Positions 8,817-30,771 of a stretch of DNA of 64,000 bases are shown here, in pieces (within the stretch, counting starts at the first letter, position 1; every line of letters starts with the position of its first letter). The notes under the pieces were generated by a model, which saw only the letters and a list, made by a program, of their open reading frames with translations, had not been told where the DNA came from and searched no databases. The stretch is from Pseudomonadota bacterium (GTDB lineage: Archaea; Thermoplasmatota; SW-10-69-26; JACQPN01; JAJPHT01). The position numbers were made by a program, and so were the translations under genes. The stretch is from NCBI GenBank assembly GCA_021325135.1, contig JAJPHT010000029.1:168144-232143 (forward strand). The letters are read 5' to 3'.

Positions 8817-9563
8817 CTACTTCCCGTAGCGCCGCTGCCGAAGCTGGTAGGTGCGGATCGCGCGCAGGAAGTCCACGCGGCGGAAGCCGGGCCAGAAGAC
8901 GTCGGTGAAGTAGAGCTCGCTGTACGCCATCTGCCAGAGCAGGAAGTTGCTGATGCGCTCCTCGCCGCTGGTGCGCAGGATGAGGTCGGGGTCGGGGAGG
9001 TGCGCCGTGTAGAGGTGCTTCGCGACGAGGGACTCGTCGATGTCCGAAGGCTTGACGCGGCCCGCCTTCACGTCCTCGGCGATGCCGCGGATGGCGTCGA
9101 GGATCTCCTGCCGGCCGCCGTAGGCGACGGCGATGGTGTAGAAGTAGGACGCGTAGTCGCGGGTGCGCTCCTCGGCGACGCGGATGGCCTCGCGGACGCG
9201 CTTGGGGAGGCGGTCCAATTGGCCGATGGCGCGGATGTGGATGCGGTTGCGGTGGACGCGCTCGTCGGCCGCCATCCGGAGGAAGTTCTCCTCGAAGAGC
9301 TCCATGAGGCGCTTGACCTCCATGGGGTTGCGGTTGAAGTTCTCGCTGGAGAACGCGTACACCGTGAGGTGCTTCACGTCCAGCTCCAGGCACCAGTCCA
9401 GCACGCTCTCCAGCGTGTCGCGGCCGTACTCGTGCCCCTTGAGGGCGGGCTCGCCCAGCGCCTCGGCGAAGCGGCGGTTGCCGTCCATGATGATGCCGAT
9501 GTGGCGGGGGACGGGCTCGCCCCTCACTTCCTTGAGGAGCGCGGCCTCGACGGTCTTGGCCAC
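8817..9563 (-). CDS. uppS: Polyprenyl (undecaprenyl) diphosphate synthase
   Basis: HIGIIMDGNRR, YAFSSENFNR, YGGRQEI, RTSGEERISNFLLWQ; the true start may be upstream at 9596. Confidence 0.96.
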   Translation of the reverse strand: MAKTVEAALLKEVRGEPVPRHIGIIMDGNRRFAEALGEPALKGHEYGRDTLESVLDWCLELDVKHLTVYAFSSENFNRNPMEVKRLMELFEENFLRMAADERVHRNRIHIRAIGQLDRLPKRVREAIRVAEERTRDYASYFYTIAVAYGGRQEILDAIRGIAEDVKAGRVKPSDIDESLVAKHLYTAHLPDPDLILRTSGEERISNFLLWQMAYSELYFTDVFWPGFRRVDFLRAIRTYQLRQRRYGK

Positions 9564-10965: not shown

Positions 10966-13900
10966 TCACGCCTCGCGGTGGGCCTCGTGCTTGGCTGCGC
11001 GCTGCGCGTCCACGTCCTCCACGGGGACGCGGCGGGGCGGGCGGCGGTGCTCGCGGCGGAAGCGGAGCGCGGCGAAGGCGTAGCCGGACGCGCCCACGAC
11101 GCCCACGCCCACGAGGACGGCCTGCGGGAGGAGGGCCATCTCGTAGGTGACGTAGAGGGCCATGGCCGCGGCGGCCGCCGCGAGGGAGACGGGCTTGCTC
11201 CAGCGCCAGACCTCGCCGCCGGGGAGGGGGCCGAAGGGCATGGCGGCGGTGGCGAGGGCCGAGACGGCCATGGCGACGCCCACGCTCTCCAGCGTGTAGA
11301 AGCCCAGGCGGCCCGCCACGAGGAAGACGAGGCTCCACGCGCTGGTGATGCCCAGGATCGCCAGGGCGCGGTGGCCGGCGAGGCGCTTCTCGCCCTCGGT
11401 CTCCTCGACGCCGTTGTCCACGTAGCCCGGGTAGCCGAAGGGCGAGCGGAAGGCGATGGTGGAGACGAGGAGCGACGCGACGCCCGCGACCCAGATGCGG
11501 AAGCGGACGCGCGCGCCCGAGAGGTGGGCGATGAGCGACTCGCTGCCGTACTTCTGGAGGGCGAGGAGGACGGCCGCGACGCCCACGAAGGGCAGCGTCG
11601 CGACGAAGGCCGCCCAGGTGTAGGCGCCCGCCTCGGCGATGGTGTAGAACACCGCGATGAGGGAGACGGTGAGGACCAGCGCGATGGCGCTGGCGATGCG
11701 GCGGCGTCGCTCGATCGAAGCGAGGTCCTTGGTCCGGTCGCGCAGCGCGTCGCTGCCCGCGTCGGTGAAGAGGTCCTTGAGGTACTGCGTGAAGCTGAAG
11801 CCGGAGCTTCCGCCGCCGCTGGTGACCGCGCTGCCCGCCGCGCTGCTGACGGAGCTGGAGGCGGTCGCGGTGGCCGCGCCCATGGCGCTGGTGGTGAGGG
11901 TGTTGGTGGCCACGGTGGCGAGCGCCGCCGCGCCGACGCCCAGGGCCGCGCCGCCGTCCGCCGCGGCCGCGGTGTAGGCCGAGTTGCGCACGAGGACGCT
12001 CGTGCTGGCGAGGACGACCTCGTGGCCGTCGGGCTGGCGCTCGCGGGCCTCCACGGTGTAGTGGCCGTCGTCCTGCTGCGTGGTGTCCCAGGTGGCGTCG
12101 CTGCCGCCGCCCAGGGTGGTCTCGTGCCCCTGCTCGTCGATGACGACGAAGCGCACGCGGTCCGGGTGCGGCGCGTTGCGGAGGCTCACATGGACCTGCC
12201 CGCGGGCGCCCGCGTCCAGGCTCGCCGTGGCGTTGGCGTCCTGCGTGACCACCAGCTGCGGAGCCGGAGGGGGCGAGGAGGGGGATGCAGACGCGGGCGT
12301 GGGCGTGACGCTGGCCTGCTCCAGGGGCTGGCCGCCGCCGGAGGAGGGCGAGCCGCTGTTGCCTGAGGGCGCGGGCGTCGAGGGAGGGCGCGCGGTGGGC
12401 GAGGTGGGCGCCGTGGCGTTGTCGTTCTGCGCGGTGGCGAGGGGCGCGTCCATGCGGAAGCTGCCGCCGGAGCCCGAGGTCTCGTGGCCCGCGTGGTCGC
12501 GCGCGACGAGGCTCACCGAGTAGGAGCCGGCCGCGCGGGGGGAGAGCGTGCCCACGAAGGAGCCGCCGGCGGGCGAGAGGTCGACGCTCGTGCCGTCGGA
12601 GAGCAGCGCGCGGACGGAGGCGACGCCCGAGGCGTCGTCGTGGGCGCGCACCGTGAGCGTGACGCCGTGGCCCACCGTGGCGTTGGGCGCGGAGAGCGAG
12701 GCGCCGTCCAGCGAGGGAGGCGCGAGGTCCACCTGGAAGTCCTGCGCGTGCTCGGCCTCGTCGGGCGCGCCCGTCTGCGTGGCGTGCCAGTGGAGCGTAT
12801 GGCGTCCCGCGGGGATCGCGATGGGACCCGAGTAGGCCTGGTCCGAGCCGCCGTCGAGGCGCCAGAGCAGCGAGGCGCCGGAGGAGGCGTTCAGCGCCAC
12901 GCTGGGCGAGGAGACGTACCACCCTTCGCCGCCGTCGGGCGACGCGGGGGAGATTGTGGCGTGGCTCGTGGGCGAGGGGAGCGCCGGGAGCGTGGCGGTG
13001 GACTCGGGGCTCGACGAGCCTTCGCCCACGTCGTTGACTGCCGCGACGGAGTACGCGTAGGTGCCGCCGGGGCGCGCCGTGGCGTCGTCGAAGGACGTGC
13101 CCGACACGGTGGCGAGGAGCGCGCGCCCTTCGCTGGCGCGGCGGTAGAGGTGATAGCTCGTGAGGGGCGGTGAGCCCGCGTCGCCGGGCGGGGCCCACGC
13201 GACGAGGACGTGGCCATCCGCGACGGTGACCGAGGGCGCGCCGGGGGCGCCGGGCGCGTGGCGCGCGGGCGTCGGCGGGGGAGGCCGCGGCGGGGGCGGG
13301 GCGGGCGGGCTCTGCACGTCCACCGTGCCGGCGTCCGCGTCGCGCGCGTTGCCCGCGGCGTCCACGGCGTGGGCGCGCAGCGTGAGCGCGCCGGCCGGAG
13401 CGGCGTGGAGCGTGGCGTTGGCGAAGCGGCCGTCGAACGTCGTGGGCAGCGCCGCGTCGCCGACGCGCAGCGAGACGCCCGCGACGCCCGAGAGCGGATC
13501 GCTCACGGGCAGGCTGAAGGCGATGTCATCGCCAGGGCGCGGGAGCGCGGGGCTCACCGAGAGGTTGCCCAGGATGGGCGCCTGGTCGTCGACGCGGATC
13601 TCCACCGCGTGGGGCGTCTCGTCGGGGAGGCCGTCGGCGGTGGCGTTGTACGTCAGCTCGTGGACGCCCGCGGGGATGGCAAAAGGCCCGTCGTAGATGA
13701 TATCATCGCTGCCGTCGAGGCGGTAGGTGATGCGCGCGTTGTCGGGCGTCGCCGTGAGCGTCGCGTTGGGCGCGTGGACGTACCAACCGGCGGCGCCGTC
13801 GGGCGCGGGGAGCGAGAGCGTCGTCTGCACCGCGGGGCCCAGCGGCGTGAACGCGAAGGGCGCGGCGAGGCGGTTGCCCGCGAGGTCCGAGGCCCCGGTG

Positions 13901-16900
13901 CCCACGACGACGGGCGGGGGGGTCGTCCAGCCGTCGCGGCGCTCCAGCGCGAGGTAGCCCTCGTCGTACCAGACGAGGTGCCAGCCGTCGAGCCCGCGCA
14001 GCGCGGAGCCCACGGCGTACTCGCTCATGCCCTCGGAGAACTCAAGGTCGACCTCGTAGGAGACGGCCTCGGCGCGGACGGAGGCGTCCTTGGCGCGCGC
14101 GTGCGCGAGGGCCGCGTCCTCGAAGCCGCCCTGGTCGAAGCGGTCGAGACGGACCGTGGGGCGCGTGAGGTCGATGCGCACGCTGCGCTCGGCGACAGGG
14201 CTCTGGGTGCCGTTCTCGTCCAAGACCACGGCCTCCACGTCGTGCCAGCCCTCGGGGAGGGTGAGGTTGTCGCCCTGGACCCAGTCGCCGTCGTCCACGC
14301 GGTAGGCCAGCGTGGAGAGGTTGAGGGCGCCCGTGCCGGCGACGGGGGCGAGCGTCACGTGGACGGGGCTCGTGTAGACGCCTTCGTGGCCGTCGGGCGT
14401 CGCGGGGTCGAGGTCGAGGCGGACGCATGGCGGGACCGTCGCGTCGGGGGAGGGCTCGTAGGCGAGGGAGGCACGCGGGCCTTCGCCCGCGGCGTTGCGC
14501 GCGGCCACGGAGTACGTGGCGGGGAGCGACGCGTCGAAGGCGGGGTCGGACGCGCCCGGCTTGCCCACCTGCGCGACGAGGACGTCGCCTTCGCAGGGCG
14601 TCGAGCGGAAGAGGTCGTAGCCGAGGATGGCCGCGCCGCCGTCGCCCTCAGGCGCGCTCCACGAGAGGGAGGCGCCGCCCTGCTCGGAGGGCGTGAGCGA
14701 GAGGCCCGTGGGGGCGTCGGGGGGCGTGGCGTTGGGGGGCGTGAAGAGGATGCCCGCGTCGGCGAGGCCGAAGAGGCCGTGGCGGTAGCTCAGCCCGATG
14801 GCGCCGCTGGGGTCCTCGATGCCCACCGTCCGGAGGTGGCTGCCGTCGCTGGGCACGTCGGCGCTCTGCACCTCGACCTGGTTGGTGCCCTCGTGGAGGA
14901 TGATCTCGAACGTGACGGGCTCGCGGTGGTAGAACTGCGAGACGCCCTCCCACGAGACGACGAAGGAGCGCTCGGGGGCCTGGCCCAGGGTGGCGACGTG
15001 GATCGTGCCTTCGCCGGGGGCGTAGAGGTCCTCCCAGTCGCCCGCGATGACGTCGTGGAGGTAGGAGCCGGGGATCGCCTGGCCGTTGCAGCACCCCTGG
15101 CTCGTGCCGGGGTCGAAGGCGAGGAAGCCGTTGCTGCCCACGTAGAGGGAGTCGTGGGTCTGGCCGTAGAAGGTGAAGTTGAACCCGATGGGGACGAGGG
15201 TGCTCAGCACGTCGTCCTCCAAGGGGAGGGGCACGCCGCCGGTGGCGTCGACCCAGCGGAAGTCCGTGGTGGCGCACGAGTAGCCCGCGGCGTCGGTGGC
15301 CGTCTCGCAGGGGGCGAGGTCGCCGGCGCTCAGCGAGGCCGCGAGCGCGCCGGGGGCGTCGCCCGGCTCGCCGTAGGCCACGAGGCGATAATGATAGCGC
15401 GCGTGGGCGTCGAGGCCCTCGTCCTGGTAGCCCGTGGCGTCGGCGCCGAGGCTCGCGACGTACCGGTTCTCGTAGCCCTCCGCGGTGCCGCGGTAGAGGC
15501 GGTAGCCCGCGAGGCCTTCGCCCAGCGTGCGCGGCGCGGTCCAGTTGAGCTGCACGCTGCCGGGCTCGCTCCCAGGAACGGCGGTGAGGTTCTGCGCCTC
15601 GCTGAGGTGGTCGCCGGGGAGGAAGAGCGTGGCGGCGTGGTGCAGCGCGTCCGCGCCGTAGAGCGCGCGCAGGCCCGAGGAGCCCTCGGGGCTCTCGATG
15701 CCCGTGACGTGGACGCGGCCGTCGGAGGGGGCGTCCACGACCTGCGTCTCGATGATATCAGACGACTCGTGGAGGATGACCTGGAAGGTGGAGGGGGCGG
15801 CGCCGTCGGGGTTGGGGACTCCGCTCCACTCGGCGACGAACTCGCGCTCGGGGGCCGAGCCCAGCGTGGCGTAGCGCACGGCGCCGGCGAGGCCGGGGTC
15901 GAGGTCGCCCCAGTGGCCCGCGACGAGGTCGTTGGGCGCGTTGGCGTCGGGGACCTCCTGGCCCGCGCAGCAGCCGGCCGTCTCGTCGTCCTGGAACGTG
16001 AGGTAGCCGTTGGGCGAGAGGTAGGCGTGGTCGTGGGCCTCGCCGTAGAAGGAGAACGAGAAGCCCAGGGGGATGGGCTCCGAGAGCCCCTCGTCGCCCA
16101 GGTGGACGAGGGTGGCGTTGGAGGGCAGCGCGCGCGGCGCGAAGGGCGTCTCCTCGCACGCGTAGCCGAAGGTGTCGTTGACCATGCCGCAGGCGGGCTG
16201 GAAGGGGGCGTCGCCGCAGGGCGCGGCGTCGCGCACGAGGCAGTCGGCGTCCAGGACGCCGGCTCCGGTGGCGTCGTCGTGGCCCCGCGCGCCCACGTCG
16301 CGGGCGGTGGCGAGGAGGCGCGCGCGAAGCTGCGCGGCGGTGAGGTCGGGGTTGGCGCTCCACGCGAGGGCCAGGGAGCCGCTCACGAAGGCGGTGCTCA
16401 TGCTGGTGCCCGAGAGGGAGGCGTACGACGAGTCGTCGCCGTCCCACGTCGAGAGCACGCCCTCGCCGGGCGCCGCGATGGCGACCTGCGGGCCCTTGGA
16501 GGAGAAGGAGCAGGGGAGGTCCGAGCCGTCGACGCACGAGACGGCGATGACGTCGGGGAGGCGGGCGGGGAAGAGGACGCAGTCGTTGCAGCCCTCGTTG
16601 CCGCTGGCGGCGACCACGAGCTTGCCGTGCGCAGCCGCGTAGGCGACGGCGTCGTCCAGGGCGGAGGAGTCGGCCTCGCCGCCCAGCGACATGGAGATCA
16701 CCGTGCGCGGCGGCGTGTGGCCGACGCACCAGGTGACGCCCTGCGCGATGACGTCCATGCTGCCCATGCCGGCGAAGTCCAGGACCTTGACGCCGTAGAG
16801 GCTGACGTTGGCGACGCCCGCGATGCCCAGGCCGTTGTCCACGGTGGCCGCGGCGATGCCCGAGACGTGCGTGCCGTGGCCGTTGTCGTCCATCGGGTCG

Positions 16901-17427
16901 TCGTCGCCGTTGACGAAGTCGTGCCCGCCCATCCAGCGCGTGCCGTTGAGGTCCTCGTGGGTGTAACGGACGCCAGTGTCCACGACGCAGAGGGAGGCGT
17001 TGGCCGCGTCGCCGAAGCCGGCGGTGGCCCACGCGAGGCCCGCGTGGATCTGCGCGAGGCCCTCCTGGTCTGCGAAGGAGGGGTCGTTGGGCGCGACGGG
17101 TGTGGCGGCCTCGTCCAGAAGGAGCGTGAGGGTGGGGGCGGCCTCGACGGACTCGACGCGCGGGTCCGCGGCGGCGCGCTGCGGGAAGGAGGGGTCGGTG
17201 GAGACGACCGAGACGCGCTGGATGGGCGCGTTCACGGCGACGACGCGCGCGCCGTCAAAGGAGCTGCCCACGTCCGCGGAGGGCTCGCCCCGCAGGTGGA
17301 GGACGTAGCGCGTCTCGGCGGCGCGGGCGGTGGCGCCGAAGGAGGGGGCGAGGACGAGAAGGGCCAGCGCGAGGCACGCGGCGCGGGTCGTGGTCGTGGA
17401 GCGGGATGAATGAATGCGGGTCGCCAA
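10966..17427 (-). CDS. Giant secreted S8 subtilase with nidogen-like, FN3 and Ig-like repeats and a polytopic membrane C-terminus
   Basis: Signal peptide; catalytic triad VVDTG / NGHGTHVSG / SGTSM; duplicated GFxFxFYG-SxNG-GCC modules; start codon uncertain. Confidence 0.9.
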   Translation of the reverse strand: MATRIHSSRSTTTTRAACLALALLVLAPSFGATARAAETRYVLHLRGEPSADVGSSFDGARVVAVNAPIQRVSVVSTDPSFPQRAAADPRVESVEAAPTLTLLLDEAATPVAPNDPSFADQEGLAQIHAGLAWATAGFGDAANASLCVVDTGVRYTHEDLNGTRWMGGHDFVNGDDDPMDDNGHGTHVSGIAAATVDNGLGIAGVANVSLYGVKVLDFAGMGSMDVIAQGVTWCVGHTPPRTVISMSLGGEADSSALDDAVAYAAAHGKLVVAASGNEGCNDCVLFPARLPDVIAVSCVDGSDLPCSFSSKGPQVAIAAPGEGVLSTWDGDDSSYASLSGTSMSTAFVSGSLALAWSANPDLTAAQLRARLLATARDVGARGHDDATGAGVLDADCLVRDAAPCGDAPFQPACGMVNDTFGYACEETPFAPRALPSNATLVHLGDEGLSEPIPLGFSFSFYGEAHDHAYLSPNGYLTFQDDETAGCCAGQEVPDANAPNDLVAGHWGDLDPGLAGAVRYATLGSAPEREFVAEWSGVPNPDGAAPSTFQVILHESSDIIETQVVDAPSDGRVHVTGIESPEGSSGLRALYGADALHHAATLFLPGDHLSEAQNLTAVPGSEPGSVQLNWTAPRTLGEGLAGYRLYRGTAEGYENRYVASLGADATGYQDEGLDAHARYHYRLVAYGEPGDAPGALAASLSAGDLAPCETATDAAGYSCATTDFRWVDATGGVPLPLEDDVLSTLVPIGFNFTFYGQTHDSLYVGSNGFLAFDPGTSQGCCNGQAIPGSYLHDVIAGDWEDLYAPGEGTIHVATLGQAPERSFVVSWEGVSQFYHREPVTFEIILHEGTNQVEVQSADVPSDGSHLRTVGIEDPSGAIGLSYRHGLFGLADAGILFTPPNATPPDAPTGLSLTPSEQGGASLSWSAPEGDGGAAILGYDLFRSTPCEGDVLVAQVGKPGASDPAFDASLPATYSVAARNAAGEGPRASLAYEPSPDATVPPCVRLDLDPATPDGHEGVYTSPVHVTLAPVAGTGALNLSTLAYRVDDGDWVQGDNLTLPEGWHDVEAVVLDENGTQSPVAERSVRIDLTRPTVRLDRFDQGGFEDAALAHARAKDASVRAEAVSYEVDLEFSEGMSEYAVGSALRGLDGWHLVWYDEGYLALERRDGWTTPPPVVVGTGASDLAGNRLAAPFAFTPLGPAVQTTLSLPAPDGAAGWYVHAPNATLTATPDNARITYRLDGSDDIIYDGPFAIPAGVHELTYNATADGLPDETPHAVEIRVDDQAPILGNLSVSPALPRPGDDIAFSLPVSDPLSGVAGVSLRVGDAALPTTFDGRFANATLHAAPAGALTLRAHAVDAAGNARDADAGTVDVQSPPAPPPPRPPPPTPARHAPGAPGAPSVTVADGHVLVAWAPPGDAGSPPLTSYHLYRRASEGRALLATVSGTSFDDATARPGGTYAYSVAAVNDVGEGSSSPESTATLPALPSPTSHATISPASPDGGEGWYVSSPSVALNASSGASLLWRLDGGSDQAYSGPIAIPAGRHTLHWHATQTGAPDEAEHAQDFQVDLAPPSLDGASLSAPNATVGHGVTLTVRAHDDASGVASVRALLSDGTSVDLSPAGGSFVGTLSPRAAGSYSVSLVARDHAGHETSGSGGSFRMDAPLATAQNDNATAPTSPTARPPSTPAPSGNSGSPSSGGGQPLEQASVTPTPASASPSSPPPAPQLVVTQDANATASLDAGARGQVHVSLRNAPHPDRVRFVVIDEQGHETTLGGGSDATWDTTQQDDGHYTVEARERQPDGHEVVLASTSVLVRNSAYTAAAADGGAALGVGAAALATVATNTLTTSAMGAATATASSSVSSAAGSAVTSGGGSSGFSFTQYLKDLFTDAGSDALRDRTKDLASIERRRRIASAIALVLTVSLIAVFYTIAEAGAYTWAAFVATLPFVGVAAVLLALQKYGSESLIAHLSGARVRFRIWVAGVASLLVSTIAFRSPFGYPGYVDNGVEETEGEKRLAGHRALAILGITSAWSLVFLVAGRLGFYTLESVGVAMAVSALATAAMPFGPLPGGEVWRWSKPVSLAAAAAAMALYVTYEMALLPQAVLVGVGVVGASGYAFAALRFRREHRRPPRRVPVEDVDAQRAAKHEAHREA

Positions 17428-22181: not shown

Positions 22182-23501
22182 ATGATCGAGCCCCAGGCGT
22201 TCGAGAAGGCGCTGGGGCTCGAACGATATCTCACCGCGGACCTCCCCGGCACGGGCGGCCGCCTCAAGGCGCGCCCCGAGGACTTTGTCGTCGAGGAGGT
22301 GCCCCTCGCCTTCCCACCCCCCGTCGCGGAGGGCAAGTACACCGTCGCCGCGCTGCGCGTGCGCAACTGGGAGACCAACCGCCTCGTGGGCGAATTGGCC
22401 CGCCGCCTGGACCTGCCGCGGGAGAGCGTCTTCTTCGCCGGCACCAAGGACAAGCGCGCCGTAACGACGCAGTACGTGAGCCTCCGCGCGCCCGAGGAGC
22501 GCGTGCGCGCCCTGGACCTCAAGGACGTGGAGGTGCTGGAGACGCGCCGCGTGGACCGCGCGCCCAAGATCGGCGAGCTGGTGGGCAACCGCTTCGCCAT
22601 CATCGTGCGCTCCATGGACGCGCCGCTGCGCGAGGCCGCCGCGCGCGCCTCCGCGATCCTCGCCCGCGTCGAGCGCGAAGGGGGCTTCCCCAACTACTTC
22701 GGCGTGCAGCGCTTCGGCGTCGTGCGCCCCGTGACGCACCTCGTGGGCGAGCAGATCGTCCGCGGCGACCTGGAGGAGGCCGTGCGCCTCTACGTGGGCA
22801 ACCCGCAGCCCGACGAGCCCGCCGAGACGCGCGAGGCGCGGGCCCGCTACGACGCGACGCGCGACCCCGCCTCGTCCCTCCCCCTCTTCCCGCGCTACGC
22901 GGGCTTCGAGCGCCAGATGCTCGACCACCTCGCGCGCCACCCGGGCGACTTCGAAGGCGCCCTGCTCTCCCTCCCCGCGAACCTGCGCACCATGTTCGTC
23001 TACGCGGCGCAGAGCCTCCTCTTCAACCGCATCGTGAGCCGCCGCATGGCCGCGGGCCTGGGCCTCAACGACCCCACCGTGGGCGACCTCGTCGCGGCCG
23101 TGGACGCCGAGGGCCGCCCCGAGAAGGAGCGCCTCCACCGCGTCACCCCCACGAACCTGGAGCGCGTCCGGAGGCTGTGCCGCAAGGGCGGCGCGCTGGT
23201 CACGGGCGGCATCCTGGGCAGCGACGCGCCCTTCGCGGAGGGCCCCATGGGCGAGATCGAGCGCGCCGTCCTCGCCGAGGCAGGCTATCGCCAGGAGGAC
23301 TTCCGCATCCCGCACCTCCCCGAGGTCGCGAGCTTCGGCACGCGCCGCGAGCTTCTCGCCCCCTTGGGCCCCGTGACGTGGGACGCGGGCGAGGACGACG
23401 CCGGCGAGCGCATCGCGCTGCGCTTCTTCCTCCTCAAGGGGAGCTACGCCACCTGCCTCCTCCGGGAGGTCCTCAAGAGCCCCGCCGCAGCCTTCGGCTG
23501 A
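22182..23501 (+). CDS. truD: tRNA pseudouridine(13) synthase TruD
   Basis: PEDFVVEE, AGTKDKRAVTTQ, GNRF, PNYFGVQRFG, KGSYAT. Confidence 0.95.
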   Translation: MIEPQAFEKALGLERYLTADLPGTGGRLKARPEDFVVEEVPLAFPPPVAEGKYTVAALRVRNWETNRLVGELARRLDLPRESVFFAGTKDKRAVTTQYVSLRAPEERVRALDLKDVEVLETRRVDRAPKIGELVGNRFAIIVRSMDAPLREAAARASAILARVEREGGFPNYFGVQRFGVVRPVTHLVGEQIVRGDLEEAVRLYVGNPQPDEPAETREARARYDATRDPASSLPLFPRYAGFERQMLDHLARHPGDFEGALLSLPANLRTMFVYAAQSLLFNRIVSRRMAAGLGLNDPTVGDLVAAVDAEGRPEKERLHRVTPTNLERVRRLCRKGGALVTGGILGSDAPFAEGPMGEIERAVLAEAGYRQEDFRIPHLPEVASFGTRRELLAPLGPVTWDAGEDDAGERIALRFFLLKGSYATCLLREVLKSPAAAFG

Positions 23502-24087: not shown

Positions 24088-24142
24088 ACGCGCGTTTCAG
24101 GATCGGTGCCTTCTTAATCGCGCGCCGAGTCTAAGCCATCGG

Positions 24143-25156
24143 ATGCACACCTTGGACGCGTTTCTTGCGGAGGTCGACCGGCGCCTCAAGGACGCCGACG
24201 ACCGGGAGCCGCGCGTGATCGACCTGCTTCGCCCCGAAGAGACCGCCGCCCTGCGCGCCCGCGGCTCCAAGGTGTTCCGCGTCCTCGTGCGCATCAGCGA
24301 CGACAAGCTCCTCTCCATCCCCCAGCAGGTCAAGGAGTGCGTCCGCTACGCGTGGGGCGACGCCGTCGCGGGCGCGCGCCGCGCCGACGCCGACGAGGTC
24401 GGCGGGGTCGTCGACCGCGTCTACAGCCTGGGCGAGCACAGCGGCTTCAAGATCGACCAGAGCCCCGTGATGGCGCGGGTCCTCCGCGAGGCCGAAGAGG
24501 GCGGGTTCGACGCGCTGGTGTGCCGCGACGGCTCGCGCCTGGGGCGCGACTACTGGGAGAAGATGGGCACCATCCGCGACCTGCGCCGCGCCGACGTCGA
24601 GCTGCACATCCTGGAGGACGGCGGCTTCTTCGACTACGAGGACAGCATGAGCAAGGTCCGCAGCTTCGCCAACACATGGGGCGACGAGGGCAAGAAGCTG
24701 GAGGAGATCCGCAAGTCCATGCGCGCCACGGAGGCCATCCGCGAGGCGCGCTTCCCCACCACGAGCCTCCCCTACGGCTACGAGCCCGCGCTGGACCCCG
24801 TGAGCCGGCGGAAGGTGTGGCGCCAGACGCCCGACGCGGCCAAGGTGCGCGCGATCTTCCAGAGCCTCACCGAGGAGCCCTACGAGGAGTTCAGCAGCCT
24901 CTCGCGCCGCTTCGGCGTGAGCCGGCAACTCCTCCGCAAGATCCTGCGCAACCGCGCCTACACGGGCGGGTTCAACTGGAAGGGCGAGTTCGTCCACGCC
25001 GAGCCGCACGTCATCCCGCCCGTGATCGACGAGGCGCTCTTCGAGGCGGTCCAGAAGATCCTGGAGCGCCGCGAGATGACGGCCCGCATCCGCAGCCCGG
25101 ACCTCATGGACGTGCTGCTGGGCTTCCAGGGGAGCCCCCAGAAGCCGGCGCCGTAA
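24143..25156 (+). CDS. Serine recombinase A (resolvase catalytic domain plus recombinase domain)
   Basis: VRISDD..SIPQQ (catalytic Ser), DGSRLGRD, PYGY, ILRNRAYTG, PPVIDEALFEAVQ. Confidence 0.88.
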   Translation: MHTLDAFLAEVDRRLKDADDREPRVIDLLRPEETAALRARGSKVFRVLVRISDDKLLSIPQQVKECVRYAWGDAVAGARRADADEVGGVVDRVYSLGEHSGFKIDQSPVMARVLREAEEGGFDALVCRDGSRLGRDYWEKMGTIRDLRRADVELHILEDGGFFDYEDSMSKVRSFANTWGDEGKKLEEIRKSMRATEAIREARFPTTSLPYGYEPALDPVSRRKVWRQTPDAAKVRAIFQSLTEEPYEEFSSLSRRFGVSRQLLRKILRNRAYTGGFNWKGEFVHAEPHVIPPVIDEALFEAVQKILERREMTARIRSPDLMDVLLGFQGSPQKPAP

Positions 25157-25242
25157 GGACCGGGTTTCTCGTACCGTTCGTACGAGTCCTACGGTTAGTA
25201 ATTTAGGAATCACCCTGAACAAGTCAACGATTTTTCCAGGTC

Positions 25243-26139
25243 CTACTTGGGGCTTCTCCGGTCATCACCCTTGGAAGCCCCTCGGCGCTGCCCCCGGATC
25301 TCCTGGACCGCCCCAAACGCCTCGGCGGTCACCAGGGGCGGGACCACCTCGGCGGAGCAGGCCCGGAAGGCCCCCTCCCAGGTGTAGCCACCCGTGTACG
25401 CCCGGTTCGACAGGATGCGGTCGACCTGCGAGGGCGTGAGCCCCCGGTCGCGCCCCAAGGCGCTGAGGTTCGCGTCGGGCTCGCGCAGCAGCGCGTCGAA
25501 GAGGCTCCGGACGTTGGCGCCCTCCGCCTCGTGGACGCGCCACACGCGGCGCCCCAGCCTGGGGTCCTTCACGCTGCGGTAGCCGTAGGGGGGCCGCGTC
25601 GTGGGCAGGCCCATGTCGCGCAGCGCGGCGGTGGCGCGGGTGGCCTTGCGGATCTCCTCGCGCTTCTTCTCCTCGTCGGCCCACGTGCTGGCCCACGACT
25701 TGACCTTGTGGAGGCGGTCCTCGAAGTCGAAGGCGCCGCCGTCCTCGACGACGTGGAACTCGATCTTGGCGGCGCGCAGGTCGCGCAGCGTGCCCATCTT
25801 CTCCCAGTAGTCGCGCCCCAGGCGGCTGGAGTCGCGCACCACCAGGGCATGGAACCGCCCTTGGCGCGCGTCGTCGAGGAGCTGCTGGTAGACGGGGCTC
25901 GCCGTCATGCTGAAGCCGCTGTGCTCGCCGACGTTGTAGATGCCGTCGAGGAACGCCGGGGCGCCCAAGGCGGCCACGTAGGCGGCGCAGTCGTGGACCT
26001 GCTGCGGGATGCTGCGGAGCTTGTCGTCGCTCACGCGCGTCAGCACCCGGTAGCGCTTGGCCCCGTCCGGCGCCTCCAGCGTGACGACGGCGGGCTTGGT
26101 GTCGGGGCGCGGGAGGAGGTCCTCAAGCCTTGCGGACAT
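25243..26139 (-). CDS. Serine recombinase B, paralogue of A
   Basis: TRVSDD..SIPQQ, DSSRLGRD, PYGY, ILSNRAYTG, PPLVTAEAFGAVQ. Confidence 0.88.
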   Translation of the reverse strand: MSARLEDLLPRPDTKPAVVTLEAPDGAKRYRVLTRVSDDKLRSIPQQVHDCAAYVAALGAPAFLDGIYNVGEHSGFSMTASPVYQQLLDDARQGRFHALVVRDSSRLGRDYWEKMGTLRDLRAAKIEFHVVEDGGAFDFEDRLHKVKSWASTWADEEKKREEIRKATRATAALRDMGLPTTRPPYGYRSVKDPRLGRRVWRVHEAEGANVRSLFDALLREPDANLSALGRDRGLTPSQVDRILSNRAYTGGYTWEGAFRACSAEVVPPLVTAEAFGAVQEIRGQRRGASKGDDRRSPK

Positions 26140-26440
26140 GGGCGGCGGTCCCTTGGAGCTCCCAGTCGACGCGGGAGCGGTCGTTCATGCGAAGCTGCTC
26201 CACCACGGCGGCGGGCAGCGCGGTGTAGAGGCTGTTGCCGCGGGTCTGCTTGTAGAGCCGGTACGTCGCCGCCTCGCCCTCCTCGCTCCCGGCCTTGGTG
26301 ACCCGGGCATACCCCCCCTCCACGTTCCAGCGCAGCCGGTCCGACGGGACCAGCCCCAGCTGGTCGCGGACCGCCTTGGGCACGGTCGTGAGCAGGTTGG
26401 ATTCGTATCCGGTGCGCCAGACGCGCGTTTCCAGCCCCAT
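26123..26440 (-). CDS. Tandem AbrB/MazE-like DNA-binding protein
   Basis: Two repeats (SNLLTTVPKAVRDQLGL..SDRLRW and NSLYTALPAAVVEQLRM...SRVDW); overlaps the start of recombinase B. Confidence 0.8.
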   Translation of the reverse strand: MGLETRVWRTGYESNLLTTVPKAVRDQLGLVPSDRLRWNVEGGYARVTKAGSEEGEAATYRLYKQTRGNSLYTALPAAVVEQLRMNDRSRVDWELQGTAAHVRKA

Positions 26441-26488
26441 CTAGTGACTCACCTAGTTTGACATCTAGTGAAAGGTCTAGTTAAATTC
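26441..26488 (-). promoter_or_regulatory. Four CTAGT motifs at 12-bp period spanning the TATA-like box to the start codon
   Basis: CTAG at 26441, 26453, 26465 and 26477; TTTAA on the minus strand at 26481-26485. Confidence 0.75.
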
Positions 26489-26776
26489 CCGCGGTTTTGA
26501 TTTCGCGGTGGACGGGGCCTCGTTTCACCCCTCCAGGCGCCCGAGGGCCATCGCTTCAGCCATGGGCGACAGGCCACTCAGGCACCCAACAAGCCCGATT
26601 CGCATTTCTCGGTTGCTTCCAGAATTAATGCCTCAAGATCGCCAGCTTGTGAGATAGAATCACGGAAAACGCGAACACAAAAAAAGAATCACGCTTCTTC
26701 CGTACAAGGCAGGTGAACCCCCCGGTGACACGCGAAACCGTATGCCCGCGGGGGTGGGCTTGGCGGTCCGGAGGCC

Positions 26777-27274
26777 GTGATGCGAGTGCGAGCCAGGTGG
26801 ATCGCCGTTGCGCTGGCCTTGCTCCTTCTCTTCCCGCTGGCGGGGGGCGAGTCCGGCTCGCACCTGACGCGGCGGGTCACGCAGCTGGTGGCCAGTCCGA
26901 CGCCCGTCGCGGGCGTGACGCTCCTGGACGACGCCCATGCGTGGCGCGTCGACCTGCCCGTGGGCGTGTGCGTCATGGTGGTCGCGCACGAGGCGGGCTT
27001 GGCCCCCTTCGTGCTGCGCGCGGCGAACGGGGATGACGCGGTGGACACCCCCAACCCCGGGTTCGACCAGTCGCTGGTCCTCCCGGCGCCCGTGAGCGCG
27101 CCCGGGTCGTGGACCGTGACGCTGGACCCCGTGGCCGGCGGGCCCGTGGACGTGATGCTCTCGTTCGACGGGCGCTACGTGGACTGCGCCGCCAGCGCCC
27201 CCGCCTCGTTCTCCCTGTGGGACGTGTCCCGCGCGCCCCCGTGCGTGGACGGCGCCGGAGCGTGCCTTCCTTGA
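26777..27274 (+). CDS. Hypothetical secreted protein
   Basis: Signal-peptide-like N-terminus; GGAGG upstream. Confidence 0.65.
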   Translation: MMRVRARWIAVALALLLLFPLAGGESGSHLTRRVTQLVASPTPVAGVTLLDDAHAWRVDLPVGVCVMVVAHEAGLAPFVLRAANGDDAVDTPNPGFDQSLVLPAPVSAPGSWTVTLDPVAGGPVDVMLSFDGRYVDCAASAPASFSLWDVSRAPPCVDGAGACLP

Positions 27275-30200
27275 CGCGCCGCGGCTGGATGGCCCTCGCC
27301 TTCGCGGGGCTGCTCCTCGCCGCGTCGCTGCCCCTGGTCCTGGGCGGCGCGGGGTCGCGCCTCGCGGCGTTCCTCGTGGACCCCGCGGCGCCCGGCGCGC
27401 TGCCCGCCCCGCCGACCATCCGCCTCGACGCGCCCGCGCCGGGCGAGGGCGTCGGCCCCGCGGTGACGCTGGCCGGCGAGGCGCGCGCGACGCCCGGCGG
27501 CGCGGTGCAGGATATCGAACTGCGCGTGGACGGCGGCCGCTGGGCCAGCCTGCCCGACGCGCCGCGCGGCGCGCCCGCGGTGCCCTTCCGCGCGGACCTG
27601 GACCTCGACCCGGGCGACCATCTTCTCGAAGTGCGCGCCTGGGACGGCGCCTCCTTCTCCCTGCCCGCCCGATCTCTCGTCCGCGCGGGCGCGACGCCCG
27701 CCCCCACCGTCGCCATCGTGACGCCCGCGGACGGCTCGGGCCTCGCCTCGGGCGACGCCACGGTGACGGGCACGCTGCGCAACGGCCCCGCCCGCGTCGT
27801 CGTCGAGGCGGCGGGCGCCACCACGGACGCCACCGTCGAGGGCTCCGTGTGGCGCGCGAAGGTCGCCCTGCCCCCCGGCGTCTCCTCCATCGTCGCGCGC
27901 GCCATCGCGTCCCAGGAGAGCCTCCCCGCCCGCGCTACGGTCTCCGTGGGCGGCCCCACCCTCGCGGTGGTCGCGCCCCAGGAGGGGGACGCGTTCGGCT
28001 CGGCGGGCGATCCCACCTGTTCGTGCGTGCTCGTGGCGGGCGCCGTCTCCCCCGACGCGGCGCGCGTCGAGGCCTCGCTGGACGGCGAGCCCGCCGCCAA
28101 CGCCACCCTGGAGGGCGCCTCCTTCTCGTGGCGCATCCCCATGGATTCCCTCGTCTCGGGGCCCCACCGCGTCGCGCTGATGCCCGTCTCCGCCGCGGGC
28201 GCGCCGGGGGCCCCGCGCGAGGTCCGCTTCCTGGCGCGCACGCCTCGCGTCGTGGCCGTGACGGGCGACGAAGCCCCGCGCCTCACGGGCACGCCCCTCT
28301 CCTTCTCCCTCGCGGGCAACGCCACCGCGCGCTGGACGCTGGACGGCGCGCCCGCGGGCGAGGGCCCCTCGGTTGATATCACCCTCGCGTCGCCCGGCCC
28401 GCACGCGCTGAGCGCCGCGACGGAGGACGGTCGGGGGCGCCCCGCCACCGCGGAGGTCCCGCTTCTCGCCCTCAACCGCCCTCCCATCGCGGCGCTCCAC
28501 GCCCAGGCGGGCCTCGCGGTGGCGGACACGCCGTTCCGCGCCGAGGCCTCCGACCCGGACGGCTCCGTGGCGCGCTACGCGTGGGAGTTCGGCGACGGAT
28601 CGGCCACCACCACCACCTCGGGCCCTGAGACGATGCACCGCTACGCCTCCGAGGGGCTTTACCGGGCGAACCTCACCATCTTCGACGACCTTGGCGCCGC
28701 GAGCCCCGTCGCCACGCTCCTCGTCGCCATCGCCAACGCGCCCCCCGTCGCGTCCTTCTGGCACGAGCCCGACGCGCCCACCGTCTTCGACGACGCGCAG
28801 TTCACCGACGCGTCGCAGGACCCCGAGGGCGCGCTGGTGGCCCGCCACTGGGACTTCGGCGACGGCGCCACCGCCGAGGGCGCGTTCGCGACGCACCGCT
28901 TCGCGACGCGGGGCGATCACACCGTCACGCTGCGCGTGGAGGACGCCGCGGGCGCCGCGGCCATCGCCACGCAGGTCGTCCACGTGCAGGACGTCGCGCC
29001 GCAGCCCGCCTTCACGTGGTCGCCCCTGGCGCCCCGCGCCGGCGAGGAGGTGGCCTTCGCCGACGCCTCGCGCAAGCCCGACGGCGCCATCGTCGACTGG
29101 AGCTGGAGCTTCGGCGGCCGCGGCCCCCTGGCGACGCACGCGTTCCCCGCCCCTGGCGCTTATGATATCACGCTGAACGTCACCGATGACTTCGGCCAGC
29201 GCGCGTCGGCCACGAGGACGATCCGCGTCGGCGACGCCGCGCCCGAGGTGCGCGCCATCCTGGCCGACCCCGCGCGCCCCCTTGCGCGGCAGCCCGTCGC
29301 GTTCCGCGCGCTGGCCAACGACGCCCTGGGCGCCATCGCGTCGCTCCGCTGGGACTTCGGCGACGGCAACGCGTCCGACGCGATGGCGCCCACGCACGCC
29401 TACGCCCGCAGCGGGTCCTACCGGGTCGCGGTCCTCGCCACGAGCCCCGCCAACGTCACCGCGCTCGCCAACGTGACGATCGCGGTGGAGGACGCTCCGC
29501 CCGTCGCGCGGCTCGACGCGCCCGGCGGCGAGGCCGGCGATCCGCTGGTCCTGGACGGCTCGGGAAGCGCGGACCCGGACGGCCGCGTCGCGCGCTACGT
29601 GTTCGATGCCGATGGCGACGGCCTCCCCGACTGCGACGGCCCCTCGCCGCGCTGCTCCTTCGCCTACCCCGCCGCGGGGCTCTACCTGGCGAACCTCACC
29701 GTGCAGGACGACGAGGGCGCCACCGCCAGCGACACGCTCGCGGTGGCGATCCTCGCCGCGCCCCCCGAGAAGGCGCCGCCCCAGGTCGTCGTCCAGAAGC
29801 CCCTTCCCGGCTCCGCGCTCTCGGGGCCGACGGTCCTCTCGGGCGTCGCCACGGGCAACCGCAGCGTCGTGTCCGTCGACGCGCAGCTTCGAACCGGCTC
29901 GCGGGCCCTCGCGCTGGGCGTCGCGCCCTGGATGCCCGCGCAGGGGATCGCGCCCTGGCGGCTCGCGCTGGACACCGCGGCATTCCCCGACGGGCCCTAC
30001 ACGCTGGTCGTGCGCGCGACCGACTCCGCGGGCGTGCAGGGCTTCGCCTTCGTGCCGGTAGAGATCCGCAACGGCCCGCAGGAGACGCCCCTCGCGCTGC
30101 GCATCGCCAACGCGCCCCTGGACCCGGTGGGCCCCGACTACGACCTCGAAGGGAGCGCGTACCACCCGCAGGGCGTGAGCGCGGTGCGCTGGCGCATGGA

Positions 30201-30771
30201 CGAGGGCCCCTGGAGCGACCCCGACGGGCCGCCCCAGGCGTTCACGCTCCCGCTGCGCGGCCTCCTTCCGGGCCTCCACGTCGTGGTCGTGGACGCCTAC
30301 CACGGCGTCTCCGAGAAGCGCGAGGCCACGGTGGAGGTGCGCGTCGCCTCGCCGCCCCCCGCGCTGGCGGTGGACGAGCCGCCGGGCCCCCTGGCGTATG
30401 GCCTCCTGCACGCCGCGGGGCGCACGGTGGGCAACGGCTCGGTGGAGTGGCGCCTGGACAGCGGCGTCTGGCGGAGGGTCGACGCGACGGGCCCCGAGTG
30501 GCGCCTCGACGCGCCCACGGGCGACCTGCCCGCCGGCCGGCACGCCCTCTCGCTGCGCGCCGTGGGGCCCGAGGGCGCCGCGGGCGACGCGAGGACGTGG
30601 AGCGTCAAGGTCGTGCGCGCCGTGGGCGACTCGCGCTTCGCCGGCTGGGGCGCCGAGGAGATCGACGGTCCGGCTCCTGCGCCCGAGCGCCGCGCGCCCC
30701 TGGACCTCATGGCACCCCTCGCGGCGCTGGCGCTGGCGGCCGCGTTCGGCGCCGCCCGGAGAAGGCTTTAG
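27271..30771 (+). CDS. PKD/Ig-like repeat surface protein with a C-terminal sorting-like tail
   Basis: Repeated WxFGDG and DPDG PKD motifs; C-terminal hydrophobic helix followed by RRR; TTGA overlap with the upstream gene. Confidence 0.88.
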   Translation: MTRRGWMALAFAGLLLAASLPLVLGGAGSRLAAFLVDPAAPGALPAPPTIRLDAPAPGEGVGPAVTLAGEARATPGGAVQDIELRVDGGRWASLPDAPRGAPAVPFRADLDLDPGDHLLEVRAWDGASFSLPARSLVRAGATPAPTVAIVTPADGSGLASGDATVTGTLRNGPARVVVEAAGATTDATVEGSVWRAKVALPPGVSSIVARAIASQESLPARATVSVGGPTLAVVAPQEGDAFGSAGDPTCSCVLVAGAVSPDAARVEASLDGEPAANATLEGASFSWRIPMDSLVSGPHRVALMPVSAAGAPGAPREVRFLARTPRVVAVTGDEAPRLTGTPLSFSLAGNATARWTLDGAPAGEGPSVDITLASPGPHALSAATEDGRGRPATAEVPLLALNRPPIAALHAQAGLAVADTPFRAEASDPDGSVARYAWEFGDGSATTTTSGPETMHRYASEGLYRANLTIFDDLGAASPVATLLVAIANAPPVASFWHEPDAPTVFDDAQFTDASQDPEGALVARHWDFGDGATAEGAFATHRFATRGDHTVTLRVEDAAGAAAIATQVVHVQDVAPQPAFTWSPLAPRAGEEVAFADASRKPDGAIVDWSWSFGGRGPLATHAFPAPGAYDITLNVTDDFGQRASATRTIRVGDAAPEVRAILADPARPLARQPVAFRALANDALGAIASLRWDFGDGNASDAMAPTHAYARSGSYRVAVLATSPANVTALANVTIAVEDAPPVARLDAPGGEAGDPLVLDGSGSADPDGRVARYVFDADGDGLPDCDGPSPRCSFAYPAAGLYLANLTVQDDEGATASDTLAVAILAAPPEKAPPQVVVQKPLPGSALSGPTVLSGVATGNRSVVSVDAQLRTGSRALALGVAPWMPAQGIAPWRLALDTAAFPDGPYTLVVRATDSAGVQGFAFVPVEIRNGPQETPLALRIANAPLDPVGPDYDLEGSAYHPQGVSAVRWRMDEGPWSDPDGPPQAFTLPLRGLLPGLHVVVVDAYHGVSEKREATVEVRVASPPPALAVDEPPGPLAYGLLHAAGRTVGNGSVEWRLDSGVWRRVDATGPEWRLDAPTGDLPAGRHALSLRAVGPEGAAGDARTWSVKVVRAVGDSRFAGWGAEEIDGPAPAPERRAPLDLMAPLAALALAAAFGAARRRL

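Follow-up and report, generated by a model that had tools for sequence, protein, structure and literature searches.

Serine recombinases are almost always encoded by mobile elements. In the large serine integrases (phiC31, Bxb1, A118/LI and TP901-1) a catalytic domain, helix E and a recombinase domain are followed by a zinc ribbon and a coiled coil, and paralogous serine recombinases working as a pair (CcrA/CcrB) or singly (CcrC) are known from the staphylococcal cassette chromosome (SCC) elements. The Xer proteins (XerC-XerD, and the single-protein forms XerA, XerS and XerH), which are inherited vertically and act at a single-copy dyad site, dif, are tyrosine recombinases of an unrelated fold. 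Here we describe a locus in a 64,000-nt stretch of archaeal DNA (contig JAJPHT010000029.1 of assembly GCA_021325135.1, hereafter the window) that has features of both groups. It consists of two short serine recombinase genes, A and B, and a gene for an AbrB-like protein, and as judged from comparison of related genomes, all of which are draft metagenome-assembled genomes, it is a fixed, vertically inherited recombinase locus kept by its host in one family of Thermoplasmatota, with a predicted site of 24-30 bp. Our literature searches found no description of the A/B recombinase family.

Recombinase A (24143-25156, + strand) has 337 amino acids (aa) and recombinase B (25243-26139, - strand) has 298, and both consist of a catalytic domain, helix E and a recombinase domain. 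They carry the Pfam domains Resolvase (PF00239, above the cut-off) and Recombinase (PF07508), are 48% identical to each other and are the sole Resolvase-domain genes of their genome, which bears out the original prediction of two tail-to-tail recombinases in both coordinates and domains. The prediction that both stop short of the zinc ribbon and coiled coil also agrees with our results: the two domains are absent and the chains end soon after the recombinase domain. In an AlphaFold model of B (predicted local distance difference test, pLDDT, 90) a single helix follows the recombinase domain before the C-terminal end, a fold search with this model gave the phiC31, SPbeta-type and Bxb1 serine integrases as best matches, and no homologue found was longer than 356 aa in a search that allowed lengths up to 522 aa. 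With the RxS nucleophile and the equivalents of R68 and R71, A and B thus correspond in build to the first two-thirds of a large serine integrase, yet they are not members of that group, as they lack its last two domains, have other residues in place of Y6, D36 and R45, and are fixed chromosomal genes with no element and no attL or attR.

The likeness to other described serine recombinases is more distant. The Ccr proteins share the occurrence as a pair or singly, but they are full-length proteins (profile 542 aa) that mobilize a cargo island, whereas A and B have no SCC cargo and match the CcrB profile weakly (16.8 bits against a cut-off of 900). The small serine resolvases (Tn3/gamma-delta, Sin) likewise have a site next to the promoter of their own gene, together with possible accessory sites, and Bacillus subtilis YneB is a chromosomal resolvase-like protein (again a weak match, 21.7 bits against a cut-off of 175), but these proteins have a small helix-turn-helix where A and B have the integrase-type recombinase domain. 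The nearest relatives in sequence are short archaeal serine recombinases of mobile islands (P0106, P0107-P0114 and proteins of islands in genome G008). P0106, which lies in a provirus-like region, and the G008 proteins, which lie in integrase islands, likewise terminate after the recombinase domain, so that A and B are not set apart by their short architecture alone; unlike A and B, however, these island proteins keep Tyr6 and Asp/Glu36. We suggest that the short architecture in mobile DNA is a plausible source, from which the A/B family would be a domesticated offshoot.

The evidence for a fixed host locus comes from its place, its distribution and its conservation. The left flank is marked by truD (22185-23501, + strand) and the right flank by a 165-aa gene followed by a gene for a PKD-repeat surface protein (together 26777-30771, + strand), which diverge from abrB. 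The pair occupies the same position in each of the four same-genus genomes, the order of two-gene loci being PKD gene, 165-aa gene, divergent abrB-B, A and truD, with truD adjoining 14 of them, and two other genera of the family have a single recombinase gene; at E 1e-15, a search of 12 genomes from other families of the class yielded no member. The neighbours that we could identify (dnaJ, csl4, rpoL, truD, the PKD protein gene, lhr and nmd3) are host genes, in agreement with the predicted lack of phage, TnpB and replication genes nearby. The further claim of a locus without cargo holds here save for a 172-aa membrane gene; in the relatives, variable genes stand beside A. Across the genus, identity to the window proteins is 79-92% for A, 78-91% for AbrB and 62-79% for B, compared with 68-84% for TruD, 75-89% for RpoL and 41-60% for the PKD protein, so that A and AbrB are at least as conserved as TruD, RpoL and Csl4 while B evolves faster. 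Ratios of nonsynonymous to synonymous substitution after Nei and Gojobori (A 0.33, B 0.38, AbrB 0.13, TruD 0.32) are distorted by the extreme GC content at third codon positions (GC3) and can be read only as similar to TruD.

Searches beyond the family point the same way. Among 185,579 GTDB species, matches were confined to Thermoplasmatota, and among 1.8 billion representative sequences E-values fell from E 1e-128 within the family to E 1e-29 at the first outsider, P0106. Searches of IMG/VR and INPHARED returned no member of the family, and that of PLSDB only a 27% match. An empty site, which the original prediction had proposed to look for, was not found as a precise junction of truD with the PKD gene in any genome: the G005 assembly has a gap exactly at the locus, and the DNA after truD in G008, G009 and G010 is unrelated to it, G008 (87% complete) being a member of the same family that lacks the recombinase locus at truD. 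A tRNA-type attachment site was rejected, the only tRNA of the window being 13 kb away. Taken together, these comparisons indicate that the locus is not a mobile element, and they set aside the earlier suggestion of a minimal element. Just after truD in G008 (L098:2945-2970) we observed a perfect 6-7-6 palindrome resembling a motif of the window (26688-26706, see below), after which comes a stretch of low GC content holding an integrase fragment, at the position where relatives carry the recombinase locus.

A candidate recombinase site (26503-26526, - strand) lies upstream of abrB and consists of a conserved arm (26518-26526), a 6-bp spacer and a degenerate arm; in 14 of 15 loci it is found 84-85 nt upstream of the abrB ATG. 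In relatives with a single recombinase, all five loci have at this place a palindrome, AACGAGG-N6-CCTCGTT (7-6-7), whose symmetry is 7/7 in four loci and 6/7 in one (9-10/12 over longer arms), where the chance of 7/7 symmetry at a given position is ~1e-4; the G006 palindrome has been altered in the same, symmetric way on its two arms. Each of the ten two-gene loci, by contrast, keeps only the promoter-distal arm; the symmetry there is 1-4/7 and the other arm retains a weak pattern. The palindrome in its 7-6-7 form occurs once in the G007 genome, and the asymmetric pattern matches twice in the genome of the window, one of these matches being at the recombinase locus. Two further copies of the palindrome were observed. 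In G007 a second one with a 5-bp spacer lies between abrB and the single recombinase gene (L031, about 9425-9450), so that near-sites flank abrB, and G010, which belongs to another family and has no recombinase, has one exact intergenic copy (L076, about 1500-1520; G010:C97:36651), reflecting either chance or another protein that reads the palindrome.

The recombinase was duplicated in the two-gene lineage and AbrB was not. In the tree, A and B form separate, fully supported clades; the single-gene proteins group closer to A, and the branch of B is long. Identity of the recognition helix is 93% within A, 54% within B, 75% between A and the single-gene proteins and 30% between B and these, from which we take A to retain the ancestral recognition helix and that of B to have diverged. 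Because the symmetry of the site was lost where the recombinase was duplicated, and the helix is ancestral in A and diverged in B, the simplest reading would be a shift from a homodimer on a palindrome to an A-B heterodimer on an asymmetric site. The genomes compared are kin and the loss of symmetry counts as one event, which makes this a lead and not a statistical proof. The size of the candidate site is consistent with the 13 bp that a recombinase domain contacts per half-site (PMC3783163). Prediction of the A-B complex, also proposed earlier, gave a score of 0.47 against 0.01 for the best control, with at least 69% of contacts agreeing between runs and a partner pLDDT of at least 73; the mark applied is reached by 51 of 78 solved and 2 of 108 mismatched pairs, and scores up to 0.60 are more often wrong than right. 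This lends the heterodimer weak support, and may only reflect likeness to solved serine-recombinase dimers.

Between the candidate site and abrB, four ACTAG repeats with a 12-bp period (26441-26481, - strand), the last abutting the abrB ATG, form an array that is unique within the genome and is likely to be the AbrB operator. The abrB gene itself (26123-26440, - strand, 105 aa, single copy) overlaps the start of B by 17 nt. The predicted double-AbrB structure of its product is confirmed by two homologous halves (33% identical, E 6e-8), with PF04014 above the cut-off for repeat 1; neither a single-sequence model (pLDDT 55) nor a fold search with it added information. The MraZ-type tandem AbrB regulators resemble this protein in having two AbrB-type repeats per chain and short direct repeats ahead of the gene; they differ in repeat and context, and the AbrB gene has no MraZ family match. 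A part in a toxin-antitoxin system was considered for it and rejected, as no toxin gene adjoins. Farther upstream are a second imperfect palindrome with a 7-bp spacer (26604-26625), conserved in position in most two-gene loci, and two further conserved motifs (26688-26706 and 26725-26737) that are essentially unique to the locus and are candidates for accessory sites or for promoter elements of the divergent gene.

We favor, tentatively, the explanation that the locus is a domesticated, vertically inherited site-specific recombination module that acts at its own site, perhaps in the resolution of chromosome dimers. As the comparisons show, a serine recombinase limited to the catalytic and recombinase domains became fixed with abrB beside truD in one Thermoplasmatota family and was then duplicated into A and B; A has its own putative promoter and was flipped independently at least twice. 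The single ancestral protein would have bound the palindrome upstream of abrB as a homodimer, and after the duplication an A-B heterodimer would occupy the asymmetric site, with A bound to its conserved arm and B to the degenerate one, much as XerC and XerD share dif. AbrB may bind the four ACTAG repeats as an autoregulator or accessory factor. Given a single-copy site, and proteins without the coiled coil by which attP x attB pairing is enforced, we speculate that the natural substrate could be two identical sites on sister chromosomes. The domesticated heteromeric recombinase that the original prediction had offered as one option fits the fixed locus, the strong conservation and the asymmetry of the site where the gene is duplicated. 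That this would be the first chromosome-dimer resolution system based on a serine recombinase, derived from an integrase with a rewired active site and a XerC/XerD-like duplication to a heterodimer on an asymmetric site, is a bolder proposal that we regard as unlikely.

The likeness to Xer/dif extends to vertical inheritance, a single-copy dyad site with a 6-bp spacer and the existence of forms with one and with two paralogues. XerS, too, adjoins its site. A and B, however, have the serine fold, and the candidate site has no evident likeness to the dif consensus. XerA gave no match above the archaeal cut-off in 21 genomes of the class, some of them 95-100% complete, compared with 13 of 40 elsewhere in the phylum, and two relatives (G001 and G007, 86% and 97% complete) have no tyrosine recombinase match at all. 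The Xer-like gene of the window's own genome was rejected as XerA, being below the cut-off, 42-48% identical to its same-genus matches and at a different locus in G002. That genome also has two divergent tyrosine recombinases (C19:31481-32626 and C26:13885-15051), 56% identical to each other and unrelated to XerA. It is a draft of 51 contigs in which GC skew on C33 is uninformative as to a replication terminus near the candidate site and the cdc6 genes are on other contigs; a replication origin at the locus was rejected, since boxes resembling origin recognition boxes lie beside cdc6 on another contig. A 2022 review was aware of no chromosome segregation by serine resolvases (PMC8987985).

Several points weigh against this explanation, among them the active site, whose residues we mapped through alignments with TP901-1 and TnpX. 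The equivalents of R8, S10, Q19, R68 and R71 do not vary in any of the roughly 100 homologues covering these positions (R50, S52, Q62, R132 and R135 in A; R35, S37, Q47, R106 and R109 in B). However, the position of Y6 is Leu or Ile throughout the family, that of D36 is hydrophobic and that of R45 is Ser or Asn (L48, L96 and S107 in A; L33, V70 and S81 in B), whereas most of 145 outgroup proteins keep Y (117), D/E (112) and R (122). In Tn3 resolvase, Y6 and D36 are crucial residues joined by a mutual hydrogen bond, and mutants in either lose about 1000-fold or more of the cleavage activity, while Bxb1 is active with Val at Y6 and R45 mutants retain some activity (PMC2794168). The joint loss of Y6 and D36 would imply rewired chemistry or reduced activity, so that the enzyme may be slow or dependent on an activator, and because the equivalents of Y6, D36 and R45 are lost though the serine and three arginines are kept, catalysis by the family is uncertain. 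Moreover, the candidate site lies just upstream of a promoter, as expected for an operator, and the binder of the palindrome is deduced from co-variation among related genomes. Finally, other families of the class without XerA are also without the recombinase locus, as is G008 at truD, and because both are lacking there the locus is not a universal replacement of XerA.

Whichever way catalysis falls out, the family is of use. The single-gene homologues with a palindrome and the A/B pairs with an asymmetric site form a natural control series. Activity in the absence of Y6 and D36 would bear on the unresolved question of the general base in catalysis by serine recombinases (PMC2794168), and would make the proteins compact recombinases of 300 aa with specificity set by the heterodimer. 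If they are inactive, a recombinase has been exapted as a DNA-binding protein under housekeeping-level selection.

The latter case leads to the main rival, that the proteins are exapted regulators or architectural proteins that use the recombinase fold to dimerise and contact DNA but carry out hardly any strand exchange, if any, the abrB-B operon, A and the divergent surface-protein operon being under the joint control of A-B and AbrB. In its favor are the concerted, family-wide loss of Y6, D36 and R45, in view of what is known of mutants (PMC2794168), and the position of the sites: the abrB promoter has a full site upstream of it, and A or the single recombinase gene a half or full one. The PKD operon diverges from the same intergenic region, and an EarA-like regulator is sometimes found between B and A. 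We nevertheless hold this rival to be rather unlikely. Three subfamilies, with 40-65% identity, all preserve the serine nucleophile, the three arginines and Q19 without exception, and, the site and its companion motifs being confined to the locus, a genome-wide search with them found no regulon.

The conserved catalytic core could also be reconciled with the lack of a second chromosomal site if A and B were host recombinases with a substrate off the chromosome or off the locus, for example if they captured or excised mobile elements bearing a matching site, or altered topology by cutting and rejoining DNA. Two-domain genes do occur in archaeal provirus-like or integrase islands, but the family itself is absent from IMG/VR, INPHARED and PLSDB in protein searches, the site itself not having been scanned for, and we think an outside substrate decidedly unlikely.

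A local invertase or cassette shuffler that flips A or its neighbours for phase variation is a further possibility, on which the history of the locus bears. The ancestral arrangement is abrB followed by one recombinase gene facing truD, as in G007, and of the two-gene loci placed on the tree eight are tandem and five convergent. The orientation of A has changed at least twice, as a single origin of the convergent state is rejected (p-AU 0.0002), the EarA-like gene can face either way, and A has variable neighbours on its two sides (the EarA-like regulator, PhzF, a family-B polymerase gene and a membrane protein). However, A has no conserved flanking inverted repeats, the half-site before A is decayed in the flipped loci, PKD gene and abrB-B never flip in the two-gene lineage, and the orientation of A follows clades. 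Because no conserved repeats bounding the flipped A unit were found in the aligned loci, the flips look like rare lineage events and not a switch, and an invertase is highly doubtful. The inverted sites flanking a segment that mark the Hin/Gin-type invertases are absent. An essential role of the convergent orientation was rejected, most relatives being tandem and the convergent state having two origins.

The original prediction had reported two inverted blocks shared by A and B and a possible rearrangement of the central segment. The identity of the 35-bp block is exact (24536-24570 on the + strand, 25790-25824 on the - strand), while the 19-bp block had been placed one base off, 24431-24449 pairing with 25911-25929 and not with 25910-25928. 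Both begin in frame and encode conserved peptides (an RLGRD and a GEHSG motif), the 35-bp block covering the codons around the R68/R71 equivalents, the GC3 of the genes that bear them is 0.96-0.98, identical A/B residues have identical codons in 75% of cases (giving P ~0.04 for 11 consecutive identical codons), and the same block has 1-6 mismatches in relatives. Because of these in-frame conserved codons, the high GC3 and the mismatches in relatives, we read the blocks as paralogy combined with codon bias and rule them out as recombination sites. With coding blocks, no A/B chimaeras seen and most relatives tandem, inversion through the 35-bp block is not supported, nor is the suggested rearrangement of the neighbouring surface-protein gene, whose position and direction are constant among the two-gene loci. 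Over 24440-24620 of A and 25740-25920 of B, and the matching parts in relatives, B is slightly closer to its own A than to other A genes in each of the five convergent loci, mostly not so in tandem loci; this hints at occasional gene conversion between the inverted copies, although the convergent loci are not independent of each other.

A minimal, self-excising mobile cassette with attachment sites on the truD and PKD sides would suit the descent from an integrase-type fold and the paired large serine recombinases of SCCmec (CcrA/CcrB), but is extremely improbable given the constant locus, a GC content and GC3 like those of host genes, housekeeping-level conservation, a single genomic copy and the lack of viral or plasmid members and of a truD-PKD junction in the genomes searched.

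Of the remaining features, a promoter of A is suggested at 24090-24142 (+ strand) by a TATA-like box (24111-24118) conserved in an alignment of 13 loci. The half-site ahead of this box (24090-24098) is decayed in the window and intact in most tandem relatives, and a sigma-70 promoter scan was inapplicable, the host being an archaeon. The gap between the stop codons of A and B (25157-25242) is probably a terminator region. It is AT-rich and has a hairpin with 7-bp arms (25170-25188) that is not conserved in relatives.

Several relatives have an EarA-like winged-helix gene, in either orientation, in the interval between B and A (L027:4659-5075; L048:1960-2355; L035:5912-6218), in L035 reduced to a remnant flanked by short repeats. 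In G001 a three-gene insert after A (L027:6290-9410) ends in a family-B DNA polymerase gene and resembles an error-prone polymerase cassette. Two islands of G008 (L032:5400-10535 on C166 and L033:1988-5789 on C377) each have a small regulator, a tyrosine recombinase and a canonical short serine recombinase, together with a convergent, highly diverged second serine-recombinase gene with a Cys-rich C-terminus, and from their gene content look like an undescribed archaeal element with three recombinases. The window also encodes, at 10966-17427, a secreted subtilisin-like protease of 2153 aa with many repeat domains and a C-terminal membrane region.

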